64,000 nucleotides of DNA from positions 1,037 to 65,036 of the forward strand of contig QZKG01000047.1 of NCBI GenBank assembly GCA_003599855.1, given 5' to 3'. Positions 31,584 through 39,174 of this stretch are shown piece after piece (the first letter of the stretch is position 1; each line of letters begins with the position of its first letter). The notes below the pieces were generated by a model. The model saw only the letters and a list, made by a program, of their open reading frames with translations. It was not told the DNA's origin and ran no database searches. The DNA comes from Gaiellales bacterium (GTDB lineage Bacteria; Actinomycetota; Thermoleophilia; BMS3ABIN01). The position numbers were made by a program, and so were the translations under genes.

Positions 31584-34046
31584 CTACATAGAGGCCCCAG
31601 GCAGTTCGTCGAAGGAGTTGTAGTAGGTCGTCCTCTGGCTAACGACCAGCGGCTGTCCTTCGACGCTGCTCTTGACCTGGACCGGGCCGTTCATCTGGCC
31701 CGGGAAAGTCGGCGTTACCCGCCCGCCGGCCGGGACGTTATAGCGCCCCACCAGCTGGTTGCCGATCTTTATATCTACCACGGCTTCCTCCTGGCTCTGG
31801 TTGCCCACCAGAATCCAGGTCTTCATGCCGGTGGAGGCGTTGTCGTACCACGCGAACCACTGGTCGCAGTTGAGCTCGGCCGGCGTGACCCCGGGGACTT
31901 CCTCGAAGGAGCCGCGGAATACCGAGCGCTCGCTCACCATGAGCGGCTGTCCATTGCTGGACACGACCCGCACCGGGCCGTTCATCAGATTCGGGAAGTT
32001 GGGCGTGACCCTGCCGCCGGCCGGGACGTTATAGAAGCCTGCCAGCTGCCCGCCGATATAGACGCCTACCTGGGCGGTCTGGGTACCCTGATTGCCGATA
32101 ACGACCCAGGTCTTCATGCCGGCGCTCTGCTGGTCGTACCATGTGAAGTGATACTCGGTCCCGAGCTCTGCCGCCGTACGGCTCCTGACCTCATTGAAGG
32201 TGCCGTTATAGGTGACCCGCTCGCTGACCGTGAGCGGCTGGCCATTGCTGCTGACCACGCGCACCGGACCGTCCATCACGCCATGGTATTGAGGCGCGAC
32301 GCTGCCGCCGGCAGGCACCGAGTAGTGCCCGACGTTGCGACCGGCGATGAACACATCGACCTCAGCGGTGCGGCTGCCCTGATTGCCCACCATCAGCCAG
32401 GTGTTCATGCCCTGGCTCACCTGGTCATACCAGGACAGGTAATGTTCCGTACCGAGATCGGCCTGGGGTGTGGCCGGCAGTTCCGAGAACGAACCGTTCA
32501 TGGTCACCCTTTCACTCACCAGCAGCTCGCGTCCCGCAAGAGAGACCACCTTCACCGGGCCTTTGGCGACACCGGCATACCTGGGGGTCACCCGCTCGTG
32601 AGCGGCTACATGATAGCTTCCCATGAACGACCCGCCGATATAGACTTCCACGTCCTGCCCCGTTTCGGTCGGATTGCCGATCACGAGCCAGGTCCTCATG
32701 CCCGGGGATGCGTTGTCATACCAGCCGAAGAAATAGTTCTTCTCGTGGCTGTTATCCACGGTCACTTCCACAGATCGGGTGCTCGTGTTGCCGGTAGCGT
32801 CGTAGGCCTTTGCGGTCACAGAGTAAGAACCATCAGCCAGAGAGCGGGTATAGATATGCGAGCCATAGGGCGCCGAAGTCTTTGTATCGATCAGCCTGTC
32901 GCCGACGTACAGCTCCACCTTGCTGATGCCGCTGCCATCAGAAGCCGAGATCTCGACGGCAACCGTGCCAGAAAGAGTCGCACCCGGTGACGGTGAATCG
33001 ACAGATACCACCGGCGGCTCCGAGTCCGGCAGGCTCACAGCCTGCCGGAATGCATCCAGGCTCTGCTGGGAACTGTTGATACGCCAGTCCGTTTCCTTGT
33101 TGATGTGGAACCAGGTCACCATCTCCATCTTCGGGAATCTGGAGGGGATGATGCTGAAAGCGTCGGTTATCCAGCGGGCCTTGCCGCCGTTCTGGGCATT
33201 GCCTCCGATCTCAGTGGAGGCCGTCTCGCTGACTACGATCGGCTTGCCGGTACGCTGTACCGCTACGTCGTAGCTGTACTTGAAGACTTCTTCGAAGCTC
33301 TGCCACGACGAGGTCCAGGTTGGCGTGTTGTACATGGTCCCCCAGTTGTACCCGTTGATACCTACGTAGTCCACGTAGCTGTCGCCCGGGTAGTAGGTAT
33401 CGAAGATGCTGTTGGCATCGGCGTAGGAACCGGCGCGGTTAGGCGACCAGATGAACTTGACATTGTCGGCGCCTTCCTGCCGGAAGATGTCGTGGATATG
33501 CCGCCACGCCGGTATATAGTCGGCTGGCGAGTTGCCGTTGGCGGTGCCGCCCCAGGCGACCCAGTCACCGTTCATCTCACACATGGGCCGGAAATAGATC
33601 GTATAGCCGAAATCCCTCAATTCACGCGCCCAGCGGCGGATCTGAGTGTCGTGGTTGCCTGCGGTAATAGTATTAAGCCGGTATTCAGGCTGGTTGTTGG
33701 GATCCTTGGCGAAGTTATGCGGTTCCCAGGAAAGCTGGATGATGCGCCCCTCTTCAGCATACGGCCTGAATGTGTCGGCATAGAATGATTCACTGATCGA
33801 TTCGTACCAGAGAAACACGTCGATCTGACGGCCGACCGTGGACTCGAACTGGTGGATATCATCGATCGTCGGCAACTGCTCGTCGGGAAACTCCGGGTCG
33901 GGGAAGAACACGCCGACCTTGAGTTGTGACGGCTCGACTGCGACGGCGTTTCCCGCGGGGATCGTAACGAAGATCGTCAGAGATATGAGCGCCGCAGCAA
34001 TCAAGACAACGGCGGAGATGCTGGCTGTGATGCGAGCCCTTGACAT
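31584..34046 (-). CDS. Secreted GH26 glycoside hydrolase with Ig-like (Big) domain and four C-terminal ~96-aa repeats
   Basis: Signal peptide; SWEP, FRPMCEMNGDW, WSPN, YYPGDSYVDYVGINGYN, KPIVVSET; PPVVSVDSPSPG..DG.Y..TAKAYD..GN. Confidence 0.88.
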   Translation of the reverse strand: MSRARITASISAVVLIAAALISLTIFVTIPAGNAVAVEPSQLKVGVFFPDPEFPDEQLPTIDDIHQFESTVGRQIDVFLWYESISESFYADTFRPYAEEGRIIQLSWEPHNFAKDPNNQPEYRLNTITAGNHDTQIRRWARELRDFGYTIYFRPMCEMNGDWVAWGGTANGNSPADYIPAWRHIHDIFRQEGADNVKFIWSPNRAGSYADANSIFDTYYPGDSYVDYVGINGYNWGTMYNTPTWTSSWQSFEEVFKYSYDVAVQRTGKPIVVSETASTEIGGNAQNGGKARWITDAFSIIPSRFPKMEMVTWFHINKETDWRINSSQQSLDAFRQAVSLPDSEPPVVSVDSPSPGATLSGTVAVEISASDGSGISKVELYVGDRLIDTKTSAPYGSHIYTRSLADGSYSVTAKAYDATGNTSTRSVEVTVDNSHEKNYFFGWYDNASPGMRTWLVIGNPTETGQDVEVYIGGSFMGSYHVAAHERVTPRYAGVAKGPVKVVSLAGRELLVSERVTMNGSFSELPATPQADLGTEHYLSWYDQVSQGMNTWLMVGNQGSRTAEVDVFIAGRNVGHYSVPAGGSVAPQYHGVMDGPVRVVSSNGQPLTVSERVTYNGTFNEVRSRTAAELGTEYHFTWYDQQSAGMKTWVVIGNQGTQTAQVGVYIGGQLAGFYNVPAGGRVTPNFPNLMNGPVRVVSSNGQPLMVSERSVFRGSFEEVPGVTPAELNCDQWFAWYDNASTGMKTWILVGNQSQEEAVVDIKIGNQLVGRYNVPAGGRVTPTFPGQMNGPVQVKSSVEGQPLVVSQRTTYYNSFDELPGASM
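31590..32745 (-). repeat. Four tandem protein repeats (Y.F.WYD..S.GM.TW..IGNQ..V.V.IGG...G.Y.VPAGGRVTP....GPV.V.S.NGQPL.VSER....SF.E.P)
   Basis: Directly visible in the translation of 31584-34046. Confidence 0.9.
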
Positions 34047-34239: not shown

Positions 34240-34454
34240 ACGAAAAAAGGTTTAATAACGTGTCGCCCGCGCCGCAGGTTGTTATTTTCCCCGGCCGGCC
34301 GATATCAAGTTTAAGCGGACCTCCCATATGGAATATTGAATTACGGCGACTGTTATGCCACTATGTTAATGGCAGACCGATACGCAGACGCTTCCGCGAA
34401 AGCGGCTTTTAGGGTATTCCATGAGTGGGGAGGCGAAAGCGGAGGTCGGCCAAA

Positions 34455-36008
34455 TTGAAACAAGTTAAGACACTGACTATTTTCGGGACCAGGCCTGAGG
34501 TGATCAAGCTTGCTCCCGTTATTTTTCAGCTCGACGCTTCTCCTCATTTCGATTCCGTCCTCGTCTCCACTGGCCAGCACCGGGAGATGCTGCAGCAAGC
34601 GATGGCCCAGTTCGGCATCGAGCCTGATTTCAACCTGGATATCATGAAGCCAGGCCAGGCGCTGAGCGATATCACCGTCGAATCCCTGCGGGGCACCGAG
34701 CAACTGATAGCTGAAGAGGAGCCGGATCTCGTCATTGTGCAGGGTGATACGACCACCGCCTTCGCCGGTTGTCTGGCTGCTTTTTACCAGCAGAAGTCCG
34801 TAGCCCATGTCGAGGCCGGGCTCCGGACATACGACAAGTACCGTCCGTTCCCCGAGGAGATCAACCGTTCGATGATCACCCAGCTGGCGGACCTCAACTT
34901 CGTCCCGACGCTCACCGCCTGGGACAGCCTCCGCCGGGAGGGTATATCCGATGACAGGATATTCATCACCGGCAACACGGTGATCGACGCGCTGTACTAT
35001 ATGGTGAAGCCGCAGTACTCCTTCATCAACGAAACCCTGCGCACAGTTGACATGGACAAGCGGGTTGTGGTGGTCACTTCACACCGTCGCGAGAACTTCG
35101 GTGAGCCGATCAGGGAGATCTGTGCCGGCGTCGCTGAGCTGGCACAGCGGTTCGAGGATATTGAGATAGTCTTCACGGTCCACCGCAACCCCAAAGTGCG
35201 GATGCCGGTTGAAAGCATGCTGGGCGGTTTTCCGCGAGTCCATCTGGTCGACCCGCTCGACTACCCCGACATGGTAAACCTGCTGTCTCGTTGCTACATG
35301 GTCCTTACCGACTCTGGGGGGCTTCAGGAGGAGGCCCCGGCGCTCGCCAAGCCAGTCCTGGTGCTGCGGGACGTCACCGAGCGCCCTGAAGCCGTCCAGG
35401 TGGGAATGGCGCGGGTCATCGGCACCTCCAGCAGAGCCGTGGTCGCGTCGGCTTCCGAGCTGCTGGACGACAGGGCGGCATACGAATCTATGGCGAGGGG
35501 CATCAGCCCCTACGGCGACGGCAAGGCGGCCGAGCGCATCATCGGAGCTATCGAGTATTCAAACGGCATAAGGGCGGATATGCCCGAGCCGTTCGTGAGC
35601 TGGCCGGCGCTGCCGGTAACGGGTGACCCGGCCGTAATCGAGCATCCCGCCAGTGACGAACTGTTCTACCGACAGCTGGACGAAAGGATCGCCAGGGCCA
35701 GGAAACAGAGGCGAAAGGTCTCGGTCGCTACTTTCGATCTGACCAGGACAGACAATCTCCAGTTCAACCAGGCAGTCAAAGCGATCACGCACAGCCTGCG
35801 TGAATCGGACACCGCAGCGGCCCTCGAGGGAAGACGCCTGGTGCTGGTCCTTCCAGGCGCGGGCGAAGAGCAGGCCCAGCGCGCTGCAGACAGGCTGCTC
35901 GAACAGCTGTCCGAGCCGCTCCACGGGCTCGAGGATGCCCTTAGCGTCGACATCAAGACGTACGAGAACGACGAACGGGAAGTCGACAGCACGGCGGCGA
36001 TCGGATGA
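34455..36008 (+). CDS. wecB: UDP-N-acetylglucosamine 2-epimerase fused to a C-terminal degenerate GGDEF domain with RxxD I-site
   Basis: FGTRPEVIK, TGQHREM, VQGDT, HVEAGLRT, PFPEE.NR, TDSGGLQEE, TERPE, PYGDG; about 140 extra aa containing LRESD-TAAAL-EGRRL. TTG 34455 follows GGAGG (alternative start GTG 34425). Confidence 0.9.
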   Translation: MKQVKTLTIFGTRPEVIKLAPVIFQLDASPHFDSVLVSTGQHREMLQQAMAQFGIEPDFNLDIMKPGQALSDITVESLRGTEQLIAEEEPDLVIVQGDTTTAFAGCLAAFYQQKSVAHVEAGLRTYDKYRPFPEEINRSMITQLADLNFVPTLTAWDSLRREGISDDRIFITGNTVIDALYYMVKPQYSFINETLRTVDMDKRVVVVTSHRRENFGEPIREICAGVAELAQRFEDIEIVFTVHRNPKVRMPVESMLGGFPRVHLVDPLDYPDMVNLLSRCYMVLTDSGGLQEEAPALAKPVLVLRDVTERPEAVQVGMARVIGTSSRAVVASASELLDDRAAYESMARGISPYGDGKAAERIIGAIEYSNGIRADMPEPFVSWPALPVTGDPAVIEHPASDELFYRQLDERIARARKQRRKVSVATFDLTRTDNLQFNQAVKAITHSLRESDTAAALEGRRLVLVLPGAGEEQAQRAADRLLEQLSEPLHGLEDALSVDIKTYENDEREVDSTAAIG

Positions 36009-36108: not shown

Positions 36109-36228
36109 ATGTACGGAGCATTACTTCCGGTTACCGGAATCGCGATAGGCCTCTACCTCGTAGTGGCGATTATAGTAGTGATAGTCGGCTCGCTGATGAA
36201 GCTTAGGGGAGGGCGCGAGAAGAGCTGA
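36109..36228 (+). CDS. 39-aa micropeptide consisting of an LPXTG sorting signal
   Basis: Not in the ORF track. GAGGAGG RBS; MYGAL-LPVTG-IAIGLYLVVAIIVVIVGSLM-KLRGGREKS. Confidence 0.75.
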   Translation: MYGALLPVTGIAIGLYLVVAIIVVIVGSLMKLRGGREKS

Positions 36229-36270: not shown

Positions 36271-39174
36271 TTGACGGACACACTCAAACAAAAGGATGAA
36301 AAGGGACTTGCCAGGCGGAACGCGTTTCTTTTAGCGGCAGGGGACGAGCAGTCGGGCAACGGCAACCTGTGGAACAAGGCGGCATTCAGTCTTGTCCTGC
36401 TGTCATTTCTCCTCATTTTTCTCACTGGCGGGCTCAGAGCCTCGGCACAGGATATCGACGAAACAGGTGTCCTGCAACCGGCGGTTCCGGAATCAGCCAG
36501 AGACGAACCGGCTCCCAAAGTCCTGATTGTGCATGATCAGGATTACGATGACGAGTTAGCATCACAACTCGCGGCACTCCTGGGGCATTTCACCATTGAC
36601 ACTGCCATCGTCGAGGAAGCCTTCTATCAGAACGGCTGGGTCGAGAGATTCGACGCGACCTTCTTCATAGGCGGCACCCACAGGGACATCAATCCCGCTT
36701 TCCTCGATGATGCTTTCGGCACGGACAGGACGATCGTCTGGCTGGGGCGCGGCATCGATCAGCTCGATGCCCGGCACCCGCTTTCGTCAAGGTACGGGTT
36801 CGCGTACGGACGCGTGGATGCCTCGGGTGAGTTCACTGACGTCAGTTACAAGGATGTCGCGCTACAGAAGACGGATCCGGTCACGGCCATCTCTTATGTG
36901 ACTGACGAGAACAAGGCCCGCGTAATGGCCTGGCTGGAAGGTCCGGACCAGCCTGAGCCATACGTGATCCGGAGCGGCAACTTCTGGGTTTTCGCGGATA
37001 TCCCCATGATCCAGGCTGGCGACAGTTCTGCCTACCTGGTGCTGGCGGACCTGCTGCACGACGCTCTGGAAAGACCTCATGCTGAAGAACACCGGGCGAT
37101 GGTCCGCATCGAGGACGTCCACCCCAACATAGAGACAGCATACTTCAACCAGCTGGTGAGCTACCTCTACAACCATGAGATCCCTTTTGCTGTCGCGCTG
37201 ATCCCAGTTTACGTGAACCCCGATACCGGTGAGGAAATCCATCTCTCCGACCGGCCTGATTTCGTCAAGGCAATCAGGGAAGCCGAACGCAAGGGTGGTG
37301 TCGTCGTTCTCCACGGTTATACGCACCAGCTTTACGGCATGACCGGGGTGGACCACGAGTTCTGGGACAACCGCGTGGGGGCTTTCCCGGAAAACGAGAC
37401 AGTCGAATCCATCAGGGACAAGGTGGAGTCGGGACTGAGGGAGGTCCGGGCGGCCGGCATCGACCCCGTCATCTGGGAGACGCCGCACTATAACGCTTCC
37501 GGTCTCGTTCACAAGGTGGTGGCCCAGTACTTCTCTGTGGCCTGGGAGAGAAGGGACGCGCCGTTCTTCCCTTATGTAGTCACCTACCCTGATACCGGCC
37601 AGACGCTTCTGCCAGAGACGCTGGGCTACATCCGCGGTGAGGAACACCCAGCAGCGGACCTCCTGAAAGTCGCCGACAAGCAGCGGGTCGTACGGGACGG
37701 ATTCGCCTCGTTCTTCTTCCACCTGCACATCAAGGAATCGCAGATGCGCGAGATGATCGACGGCCTGGAAGACAGAGGCTACGTGTTCGCCCCGCCGGCG
37801 GAGGTCGCTGGACTGCCATATACACCTCCGGAACCTCCCTCCTGGCTGAGCAAGTTCGCCAGCGGAGTTTCGGAGCACGTGGGGGCTTTCATCCCGCAGG
37901 GACTGAAGCAGATGAGTTCGGCAACAGTGCTGACACTGCTGGCCATCTTCATCATTTTTTACTATTGGGGCATCTTCTTACTCAGCCGCAAGCCGCCCTC
38001 TTACAAGGGTGAATATGACCCGGACCTGCTGTTCGTCGTCGTCGTCCCGGCGCTGAACGAAGAGCTTGTGATCGGGAAGACGCTCGACCACCTGCTCTCG
38101 TTGAAGGATGACAACCTCCTGATCCTGGTGGTCAATGACGACTCGGACGACGATACCAGGGACATCGTACTGGGCTACCCGCAGGACAGGGTGAAACTGA
38201 TCGACCATCCCCGGGCTCTGTCGCGCCAGGGGAAAGGGCGCGTCCTGAATTATGCTTTCCGTTATCTGATGGCGAGCGACATCGTCAAACAGAAAGGCAC
38301 CAGCAAGGTCATCTACGGAGTTCTTGATGCGGACGGCCGTGTGGAGAAGAACCTGGTCTCCGAAATCAACCCCTATTTCGCCGACCCCCGGTCAGGCGCT
38401 GTGCAGGTGGGGGTGCGGATCTCGAACGCCAACACCAACATCCTTACCAAATGGCAGAACTTCGAATTCCTTGCTTTCGCCCGCCTGGCCCAAAAGGCTC
38501 GCGAGCACCTAGGCAGCGTCGGCCTGGGAGGCAACGGGCAGTTCGTGCGCCTTTCGGCCCTTGCCAGCCTGGGCTCGGAGCCCTGGACTGACTGCCTGAC
38601 CGAAGACCTTGACCTGGGCATACGGCTGATGCTCAAGGGCTGGCAGAACCATTACTGCTCCAATACCTTTGTCGCCCAGCAGGGTGTCCCGACGATGAAG
38701 GCTCTTATCCGCCAGCGTACCCGCTGGTTCCAGGGGCATCTCACCTGCTGGCGGCACATACCTGCGCTCTCCTACCGGCACAAGGAGCCGTCAGCGCGTA
38801 TCGATACCATCTATTACCTGCTGGCACCCCTGATGGTATTCGTCTTCCTGCCCAGCTCTTTGCTGTTCATCATGTGGTCGGTGTACTTCATCGCCACCGG
38901 GGCATCCTCACTGACGTTCTCGCCTCTTGACTACATCCCGGCGATACTGATCTGGTATCTGTTCTCTTTCGGCGCCGTGCCAACGGTGGTCTGGACCTTC
39001 TGGCGTGAGGAGAAGGACATGTCGGGCTGGAAGGCTTTCCTCTGGGCCCACATCTTCTCTTTTTTCTACATATTCTGGTTCCTGGCTGGAATCAAGGCCG
39101 TCATCCGGCTGGCGCGCGGCGAAGGTTCCTGGGTCAAGACCGGGAGGGTCCGGGAAGTCCATCAGCATCCCTGA
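36271..39174 (+). CDS. Fusion of DUF2334 polysaccharide deacetylase (YdaL-like) and processive GT2 synthase (YdaM-like)
   Basis: N-terminal TM/signal; VRIEDVHP, LHGYTHQ, WETPHY; TM; then DDDSDD, GKGRVLN, DADG, TEDLDLG, QRTRW (QxxRW), C-terminal TMs and WVKT. Confidence 0.88.
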   Translation: MTDTLKQKDEKGLARRNAFLLAAGDEQSGNGNLWNKAAFSLVLLSFLLIFLTGGLRASAQDIDETGVLQPAVPESARDEPAPKVLIVHDQDYDDELASQLAALLGHFTIDTAIVEEAFYQNGWVERFDATFFIGGTHRDINPAFLDDAFGTDRTIVWLGRGIDQLDARHPLSSRYGFAYGRVDASGEFTDVSYKDVALQKTDPVTAISYVTDENKARVMAWLEGPDQPEPYVIRSGNFWVFADIPMIQAGDSSAYLVLADLLHDALERPHAEEHRAMVRIEDVHPNIETAYFNQLVSYLYNHEIPFAVALIPVYVNPDTGEEIHLSDRPDFVKAIREAERKGGVVVLHGYTHQLYGMTGVDHEFWDNRVGAFPENETVESIRDKVESGLREVRAAGIDPVIWETPHYNASGLVHKVVAQYFSVAWERRDAPFFPYVVTYPDTGQTLLPETLGYIRGEEHPAADLLKVADKQRVVRDGFASFFFHLHIKESQMREMIDGLEDRGYVFAPPAEVAGLPYTPPEPPSWLSKFASGVSEHVGAFIPQGLKQMSSATVLTLLAIFIIFYYWGIFLLSRKPPSYKGEYDPDLLFVVVVPALNEELVIGKTLDHLLSLKDDNLLILVVNDDSDDDTRDIVLGYPQDRVKLIDHPRALSRQGKGRVLNYAFRYLMASDIVKQKGTSKVIYGVLDADGRVEKNLVSEINPYFADPRSGAVQVGVRISNANTNILTKWQNFEFLAFARLAQKAREHLGSVGLGGNGQFVRLSALASLGSEPWTDCLTEDLDLGIRLMLKGWQNHYCSNTFVAQQGVPTMKALIRQRTRWFQGHLTCWRHIPALSYRHKEPSARIDTIYYLLAPLMVFVFLPSSLLFIMWSVYFIATGASSLTFSPLDYIPAILIWYLFSFGAVPTVVWTFWREEKDMSGWKAFLWAHIFSFFYIFWFLAGIKAVIRLARGEGSWVKTGRVREVHQHP

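Follow-up and report, generated by a model that had tools for sequence, protein, structure and literature searches.

The gene at 34425..36008 (+) of the window, the 64,000-nucleotide stretch of Gaiellales bacterium contig QZKG01000047.1 analysed here, encodes a non-hydrolysing UDP-N-acetylglucosamine (UDP-GlcNAc) 2-epimerase, WecB, joined by a linker to a degenerate and shortened GGDEF domain. We read this C-terminal extension, with a probability of roughly 55%, as a soluble receptor for cyclic di-GMP (c-di-GMP) that uses the allosteric inhibitory site (I-site) in the manner of PelD, PssE and YdaK and is fused to a precursor enzyme. The reading follows from the R459/D462/R490 triad, which is kept in the canonical register. 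Because the dead GGDEF remnant carries an I-site and a polysaccharide synthase is encoded next to it, the fusion probably links slime polysaccharide production to c-di-GMP. The parts of the gene are as follows.

34425..36008 (+): whole fusion gene, WecB + linker + degenerate mini-GGDEF, 527 amino acids from GTG 34425
34455..35558 (+): non-hydrolysing UDP-GlcNAc 2-epimerase (WecB) domain (TIGR00236, PF02350, 3beo alignment)
35559..35654 (+): linker, residues 379-410, predicted disordered, with a conserved motif
35655..35963 (+): degenerate, shortened GGDEF core, residues 411-513 (PF00990, hhalign, AlphaFold2, Foldseek, VIA-align)
35799..35810 (+): RxxD I-site motif R459-E-S-D462, codons CGT GAA TCG GAC
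35826..35840 (+): former GG(D/E)EF position, now EGRRL (hhalign register, conservation)
35892..35894 (+): R490, third I-site residue, on helix α3, 28 residues past D462

Database protein P0001, 100% identical and 517 residues long, begins 10 codons later than the open reading frame, and TTG 34455 is the likely true start, giving a product of 517 residues. Judged by an equivalog-level score and a full-length alignment, the N-terminal part is a complete WecB. The fusion protein scores 483.3 bits against the NCBIfam equivalog of the non-hydrolysing UDP-GlcNAc 2-epimerase (TIGR00236, cut-off 210), and Epimerase_2 (Pfam PF02350) covers residues 36-377 (E = 4e-117). The solved WecB structures 3beo, 1f6d and 4fkz match the WecB part at E = 1e-110 to 1e-116, and the alignment to 3beo, an enzyme of 375 residues, runs from end to end (query 3-366, chain 8-369, E = 1.3e-116). 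About 150 residues therefore lie past the normal end of WecB, as the initial annotation had claimed. No transmembrane segment, GAF domain or domain of the short-chain dehydrogenase/reductase (SDR) type was detected in the fusion protein by Pfam scan or in the full-length model. In that model the linker residues 393-413 have a predicted local distance difference test score (pLDDT) below 50, so that the GGDEF remnant is probably a module tethered to the WecB body. The linker is nevertheless not free of conservation: in the alignment of 29 fused sequences described below P387 and F390 are invariant and S392 and D401 reach at least 90%, and the linker may be a short docking motif.

The extension alone matches the GGDEF profile PF00990 with 29.3 bits (E = 8.6e-7, cut-off 23.8) over profile positions 58-137 of 161; the whole fusion protein matches it with 24.3 bits. 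GGDEF_2 (PF17853) was considered as the family of the extension and rejected, its score of 21.4 bits lying below the cut-off of 24.5. Aligned by hhalign as a 7-row profile to an alignment of this genome's own 16 best GGDEF domains, the extension gives a probability of 97.8% and E = 6.9e-13 over 116 columns. The AlphaFold2 model of the extension, built from a 34-row alignment, has a mean pLDDT of 69.9 (71-86 in the core blocks) and over extension residues 33-135 the topology helix-strand-helix-strand-strand-helix-strand. Foldseek finds 23 matches to it in the PDB at E ≤ 0.001, those listed being GGDEF entries, and PelD entries come next (E = 0.0016-0.0041, 27% identity). In an independent VIA-align search against representative structures, GGDEF domains fill the top 31 rows (Z = 9.9-12.3, root-mean-square deviation 2.4-6.2 over 98-120 residues), among them PleD (Z = 11.4) and PelD (Z = 9.9); unrelated α/β folds start at Z = 9.6. 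The C-terminus was thus found, by profile and by comparison of the predicted structure, to carry the GGDEF fold that had been proposed for it. A single-sequence search of the PDB with the extension returns weak GGDEF matches (E = 0.013-0.47); the assignment rests on the profile-profile and fold comparisons, and the sequence-to-PDB searches are not decisive.

The hhalign register places RESD on the RxxD motif of the genome's own GGDEF domains and EGRRL on their GGEEF five residues later. This is the spacing given in the initial annotation, which had put RxxD exactly five residues before the degenerate GGDEF position. R490 aligns with the R of the ‘ERIR’ helix in the same domains. Where these have ‘GH..GD’ the extension has a gap of nine residues (α2), and the last ~20 positions of the GGDEF profile have no counterpart in it (PF00990, hhalign). 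With no GG(D/E)EF, the ‘GH..GD’ gap and the missing C-terminal part, the extension cannot be a cyclase; to judge from its sequence it is catalytically dead, and the earlier description of it as such holds.

Of 1758 candidates searched with the extension, 29 proteins reach E ≤ 0.01, and every one of them carries Epimerase_2 (469-559 residues long, 48-80% identity in the domain). One of them is the window's own protein, and the conservation alignment consists of this protein and the 28 others. Invariant positions number 30 of the 149 in the extension, and the only charged residues among them are R421, R459, D462 and R490. Since three of these four are R459, D462 and R490, the motif is more than a chance occurrence; the RxxD motif is conserved throughout the fusions (R459, D462 and R490 identical in 29/29). 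The hairpin that was once the active site is conserved too (G469 in 28/29, K or R at 470 in 29/29, R471 in 28/29).

This last feature bears on another explanation, in which the extension is a relic or structural module that binds no nucleotide and serves oligomerization or docking, RxxD and R490 being kept for the fold or for a protein contact. The hairpin EG[KR]R is as well conserved as the I-site, which suggests a new interface, and the domain is reduced to a bare β-α-β-β-α-β core. That the canonical c-di-GMP triad, in canonical register, makes up three of the four invariant charged residues speaks for a nucleotide-binding site instead, and we regard a module without ligand as distinctly unlikely.

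The comparison with PelD, PssE and YdaK made in the initial annotation is apt, for dependence on the I-site is documented in these systems (PMC7112168, PMC5422440, PMC7064775; the literature is cited here and below from excerpts of the papers). In Bacillus cereus PelD, R395, the equivalent of R490, is needed for c-di-GMP binding (PMC7112168). YdaK requires R202 and D205 for exopolysaccharide (EPS) production (PMC5422440), and R202 also for the c-di-GMP-induced conformational change and the contact with DgcK (PMC5422440, PMC7064775).

The domain was found fused to WecB only. Among 1.84 billion representative proteins of all lengths, nine reach E ≤ 0.001 (HMMER), of which eight were scanned with Pfam, P0037 being left out. 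The best two of the nine are WecB fusions. Four (P0034, P0035, P0036 and P0038) are GGDEF proteins of the ordinary kind, a 98-residue piece (P0033) has no Pfam match, and P0032 carries neither Epimerase_2 nor GGDEF. P0037 (2527 residues, E = 5e-4) matches query residues 16-68, outside the I-site region. No stand-alone or differently fused copies were thus found among the eight, save for the 98-residue piece, P0032 and the ordinary GGDEF proteins. One of the latter, P0036, matches PleD and WspR and is a genuine protein of the cyclase type; over the stretch from RxxD through GGDEF to α3 it is strikingly similar to the extension.

An assembly artefact or frameshift as the origin of the fusion was rejected, as the 29 fused homologues come from several sources and in ten further genomes of the same GTDB family the domain lies within open frames of 413-583 residues. 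Of 401 genomes sampled across the phylum, only the window's own gave a strong match (223 bits, against at most 37.5 elsewhere); none of the conclusions draws on the unpublished genome G268. Within the GTDB family, 24 genomes with the window's included, the domain is present at E ≤ 1e-15 in 11 and the GT2 part of the neighbouring synthase at E ≤ 1e-60 in 13; 9 of the 11 genomes with the domain have both. In one genome (G439) the contig breaks off behind the fusion gene, with a DUF2334 piece on a different contig; elsewhere the synthase sits in a different context (G489) or is cut by the contig end (G444).

No terminator-like site was found between the fusion gene and the two frames that follow it, a small open reading frame (micro-ORF) and the synthase gene; a glycanase gene lies on the other side.

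36109..36228 (+): micro-ORF for a 39-residue protein with one membrane pass, between fusion gene and synthase gene, no Pfam match
36271..39174 (+): DUF2334-GT2 synthase, 967 residues (PF10096, E = 8e-47; PF13641, E = 2e-28)
31584..34046 (-): divergent GH26 glycanase, secreted, bearing an Ig domain and C-terminal module repeats (PF02156, Big_7)

At least five related loci exist, all in metagenome-assembled genomes of Actinomycetota. The synthase directly follows the fusion gene in four of the five listed, the contig of the fifth ending first, and GH26 lies upstream in three of the four listed loci that cover that side (L001, L002, L004). The synthase has a deacetylase-like DUF2334 domain between two hydrophobic segments, then a processive-type GT2 domain and C-terminal membrane helices. 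Its best NCBIfam matches are both below their cut-offs, an XrtP-associated glycosyltransferase family with 253 bits (cut-off 520) and PgaC_IcaA with 78 (422); it has a distant similarity to BcsA (E = 3e-4) and, at 24% identity and E = 4e-4, to NfrB, a synthase of a ManNAc polymer. Pfam and NCBIfam scans revealed no recognizable c-di-GMP domain in it.

We propose that the C-terminal ~105 residues are a GGDEF-derived minimal module that has lost cyclase chemistry and kept the allosteric inhibitory site (RxxD plus the α3 arginine), where c-di-GMP would be bound by R459, D462 and R490. The flexible linker of ~30 residues would let the liganded domain dock on a membrane complex of the DUF2334-GT2 synthase and the 39-residue subunit. 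Docking would switch polymerization on and place UDP-N-acetylmannosamine (UDP-ManNAc) formation at the synthase. The latter matters because the equilibrium of UDP-GlcNAc 2-epimerase favours UDP-GlcNAc over UDP-ManNAc. The product would be a β-linked ManNAc polymer, possibly partly de-N-acetylated and trimmed by GH26. A complex prediction with synthase residues 535-967, which comprise its GT2 domain and membrane part, the mini-GGDEF (extension residues 27-149) and two c-di-GMP molecules scored 0.01 against a mark of 0.32, a result that bears neither way on binding. Separately, the cytoplasmic C-terminal tail of the synthase (38900..39174, +) is conserved and basic, with R946, K956 and R959 invariant in 4/4 sequences; it could be a partner for a bound c-di-GMP dimer.

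The alternative put first in the initial annotation, that c-di-GMP at the I-site gates the epimerase in cis, raising or lowering its output and thereby governing the pathway at its precursor step, possibly with the domains cross-linked across the WecB dimer, draws on the same I-site evidence as docking on the synthase. A sensor fused to an enzyme usually regulates that enzyme, the invariant linker residues P387 and F390 could pack on the WecB body, and one relative (G449) retains the fusion without the synthase. The low confidence of the linker in the full-length model fits such coupling poorly. In the window's genome (2.35 Mb, 90.7% complete) Epimerase_2 has no match besides the fusion protein, and two TagA/WecG-family matches elsewhere in that genome should need UDP-ManNAc; the sole WecB probably also feeds a wall polymer. 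An on/off gate would be costly in such a cell, which makes strict gating of the UDP-ManNAc supply less likely; together with the unfavourable equilibrium, it favours docking and channelling. Moreover, the degenerate-GGDEF EPS receptors characterized so far all act, as described, on synthase complexes (PMC5422440, PMC7112168, PMC7064775). Recruitment to the synthase, or channelling towards it, fits better in this analysis, and gating in cis appears unlikely. A stronger version of the receptor reading makes this the smallest natural I-site module (~105 residues), with a soluble metabolic enzyme put directly under c-di-GMP and the only WecB diverted from the wall polymer to the EPS synthase. The messenger would then set the place or the rate of UDP-ManNAc synthesis, a second-messenger control of a nucleotide-sugar precursor in an actinobacterial lineage that is uncultured and in which no PilZ match was found; as a whole we consider this stronger version doubtful.

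Several observations weigh against the extension being an I-site receptor that serves the synthase. The known I-site EPS receptors are membrane-anchored and the fusion protein has no anchor. The extension is short, without the last ~20 GGDEF profile positions and part of α2, and no solved receptor of such small size turned up. Confidence in the model, with its mean pLDDT of 69.9 from 34 rows, is moderate. When PDB sequences were searched with the 7-row profile, first place went to 4hhu (E = 9.6e-7), a protein designed de novo, with GGDEF chains at only E = 0.0036-0.08. That a designed protein ranks first indicates that part of the sequence signal is generic to β-α-β structures, and this top match to an idealized protein is also what a structural relic might give. 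Three family genomes depart from the common arrangement. In G449 the 509-residue fusion (L047 6384-7913, -) ends after α3 with a shortened domain, and neither synthase nor GH26 was found at the locus or, at E ≤ 1e-60, elsewhere in the genome. In G419 the genes of the locus stand in a different order and WecB, 404 residues long (L045 3546-4760, -), lacks the domain, and G411 has synthase and GH26 without an adjacent WecB. Loss in G419 and truncation in G449 mean that the domain is dispensable in some relatives, as expected of a relic. The G419 and G449 variants are also ready-made comparison material on the function of the domain.

The genome itself offers a c-di-GMP background, with 17 other GGDEF matches and 13 matches to HD_5, which we take to be the Pfam family of HD-GYP phosphodiesterases. 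No match to EAL or PilZ was found in the 90.7%-complete genome. A genome so rich in c-di-GMP turnover, yet with no PilZ match found, argues against the extension being a relic. The 17 candidate cyclases bring in a further explanation, that the I-site mainly contacts a cognate diguanylate cyclase in local signalling, or that it binds another nucleotide. A contact of this kind has a model in YdaK and DgcK, whose interaction needs the I-site arginine of YdaK (PMC7064775). No other GGDEF match was found on contig C7, which holds the window, and nothing points to another ligand. This further explanation is compatible with an I-site receptor and does not exclude it; as an account of the main role of the site we hold it to be very unlikely.

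Among published systems the nearest to the fusion is an extended form of PelD from Gram-positive bacteria, which has an SDR epimerase domain at its N-terminus (Whitfield et al., 2020; PMC7112168). PelD of Pseudomonas aeruginosa and B. cereus, the c-di-GMP receptor of a synthase-dependent EPS, resembles the fusion in its degenerate GGDEF domain with intact RxxD and downstream arginine, and the extended form also carries a nucleotide-sugar epimerase domain in the same polypeptide (PMC7112168). In the extended PelD, as described there, the epimerase precedes transmembrane helices, a GAF domain and the degenerate GGDEF; it is an SDR domain of the 4-epimerase type and mostly predicted to be inactive (PMC7112168). 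The fusion has instead a GT-B-fold 2-epimerase at WecB equivalog score, no anchor, no GAF domain and a much shorter GGDEF remnant. Judged by domain content, it is an analogue and not a member of the SDR-epimerase-PelD fusions.

YdaK (Bacillus subtilis ydaJKLMN) and PssE (Listeria pssA-E) are similar to the fusion in having a degenerate GGDEF domain with an I-site, encoded in an EPS operon with a GT2 synthase, and the Listeria Pss product is a β-1,4-ManNAc chain (PMC5422440). Compared by description only, both differ from it in being separate, membrane-anchored proteins whose GGDEF fold is full-length and to which no enzyme is joined; YdaK has four transmembrane helices (PMC7064775). ManNAc polymers that are fed by WecB and controlled by c-di-GMP are on record for NfrB (PMC8669469) and for the Listeria Pss EPS (PMC5422440). 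In Escherichia coli, as in the arrangement proposed here, a c-di-GMP-activated GT2 enzyme, NfrB, uses UDP-ManNAc made by WecB (NfrC), and the receptor there is an MshEN domain on the synthase, with WecB a plain enzyme encoded elsewhere (PMC8669469). In the window the receptor-like domain is on WecB, and it is the synthase that lacks a recognizable c-di-GMP domain. The product-inhibited cyclases PleD, WspR and DgcR share with the extension the fold and the I-site register; unlike them it has no GG(D/E)EF, has the ‘GH..GD’ gap and misses the C-terminal part.

No publication describing a WecB-GGDEF fusion was found in full-text searches, which do not cover subscription journals. Control of exopolysaccharides by c-di-GMP is known at the synthase (PilZ, MshEN, the PgaCD interface, PelD, PssE, YdaK) and at transcription. 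If the extension is a receptor, its place on the enzyme of sugar-donor synthesis would bring control, or channelling, to the precursor step as well. Such a domain would also set the outline of a minimal I-site module that could be used as a compact tag for binding c-di-GMP. The fusion further opens a way to the c-di-GMP effectors of a little-studied Actinomycetota lineage, in whose small genome there are many cyclases and HD_5 proteins and no PilZ match was found.

The micro-ORF between fusion gene and synthase is present in the window and in 5/5 related loci listed, with 37-44 residues, one hydrophobic helix and a basic tail:

L001 6254-6382: micro-ORF copy
L002 10632-10751: micro-ORF copy
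L003 6677-6808: micro-ORF copy
L004 4299-4412: micro-ORF copy
L005 1294-1428: micro-ORF copy

In L045 and L049, where the locus is rearranged, it likewise stands ahead of the synthase. The protein is probably a small subunit of the synthase, and our guess is a role like that of IcaD or PgaD. Further downstream, the related loci carry the gene of the housekeeping-type sigma factor as well as genes for a TPR protein and for a redoxin.

The catalytic domain of the GH26 glycanase resembles the GH26 domain of Endoglucanase H (2bv9, E = 1.6e-54). Its residues ~437-820 consist of about four repeats of a ~95-residue module, for which Pfam gives no significant match. Copies of this module also occur in genus g4 (G419, G415), fused to the extracellular N-terminus of the synthase, which is there ~1,175 to 1,210 residues long (N-terminal part of L045 4773-8402, -). 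That GH26 and these synthases share it suggests, by sequence comparison, a polymer-binding module.

DUF2334, on which a literature search yielded nothing of use, occurs beyond the synthase. Among the control genomes B. subtilis also gives a DUF2334 match, presumably YdaL. In the window's genome a second DUF2334 protein (G000:C1:14678-16096, -), in a frame of 1007 residues, shares 39% identity with the synthase's DUF2334 half, and similar paralogues are found in G454, G495, G117 and G477.

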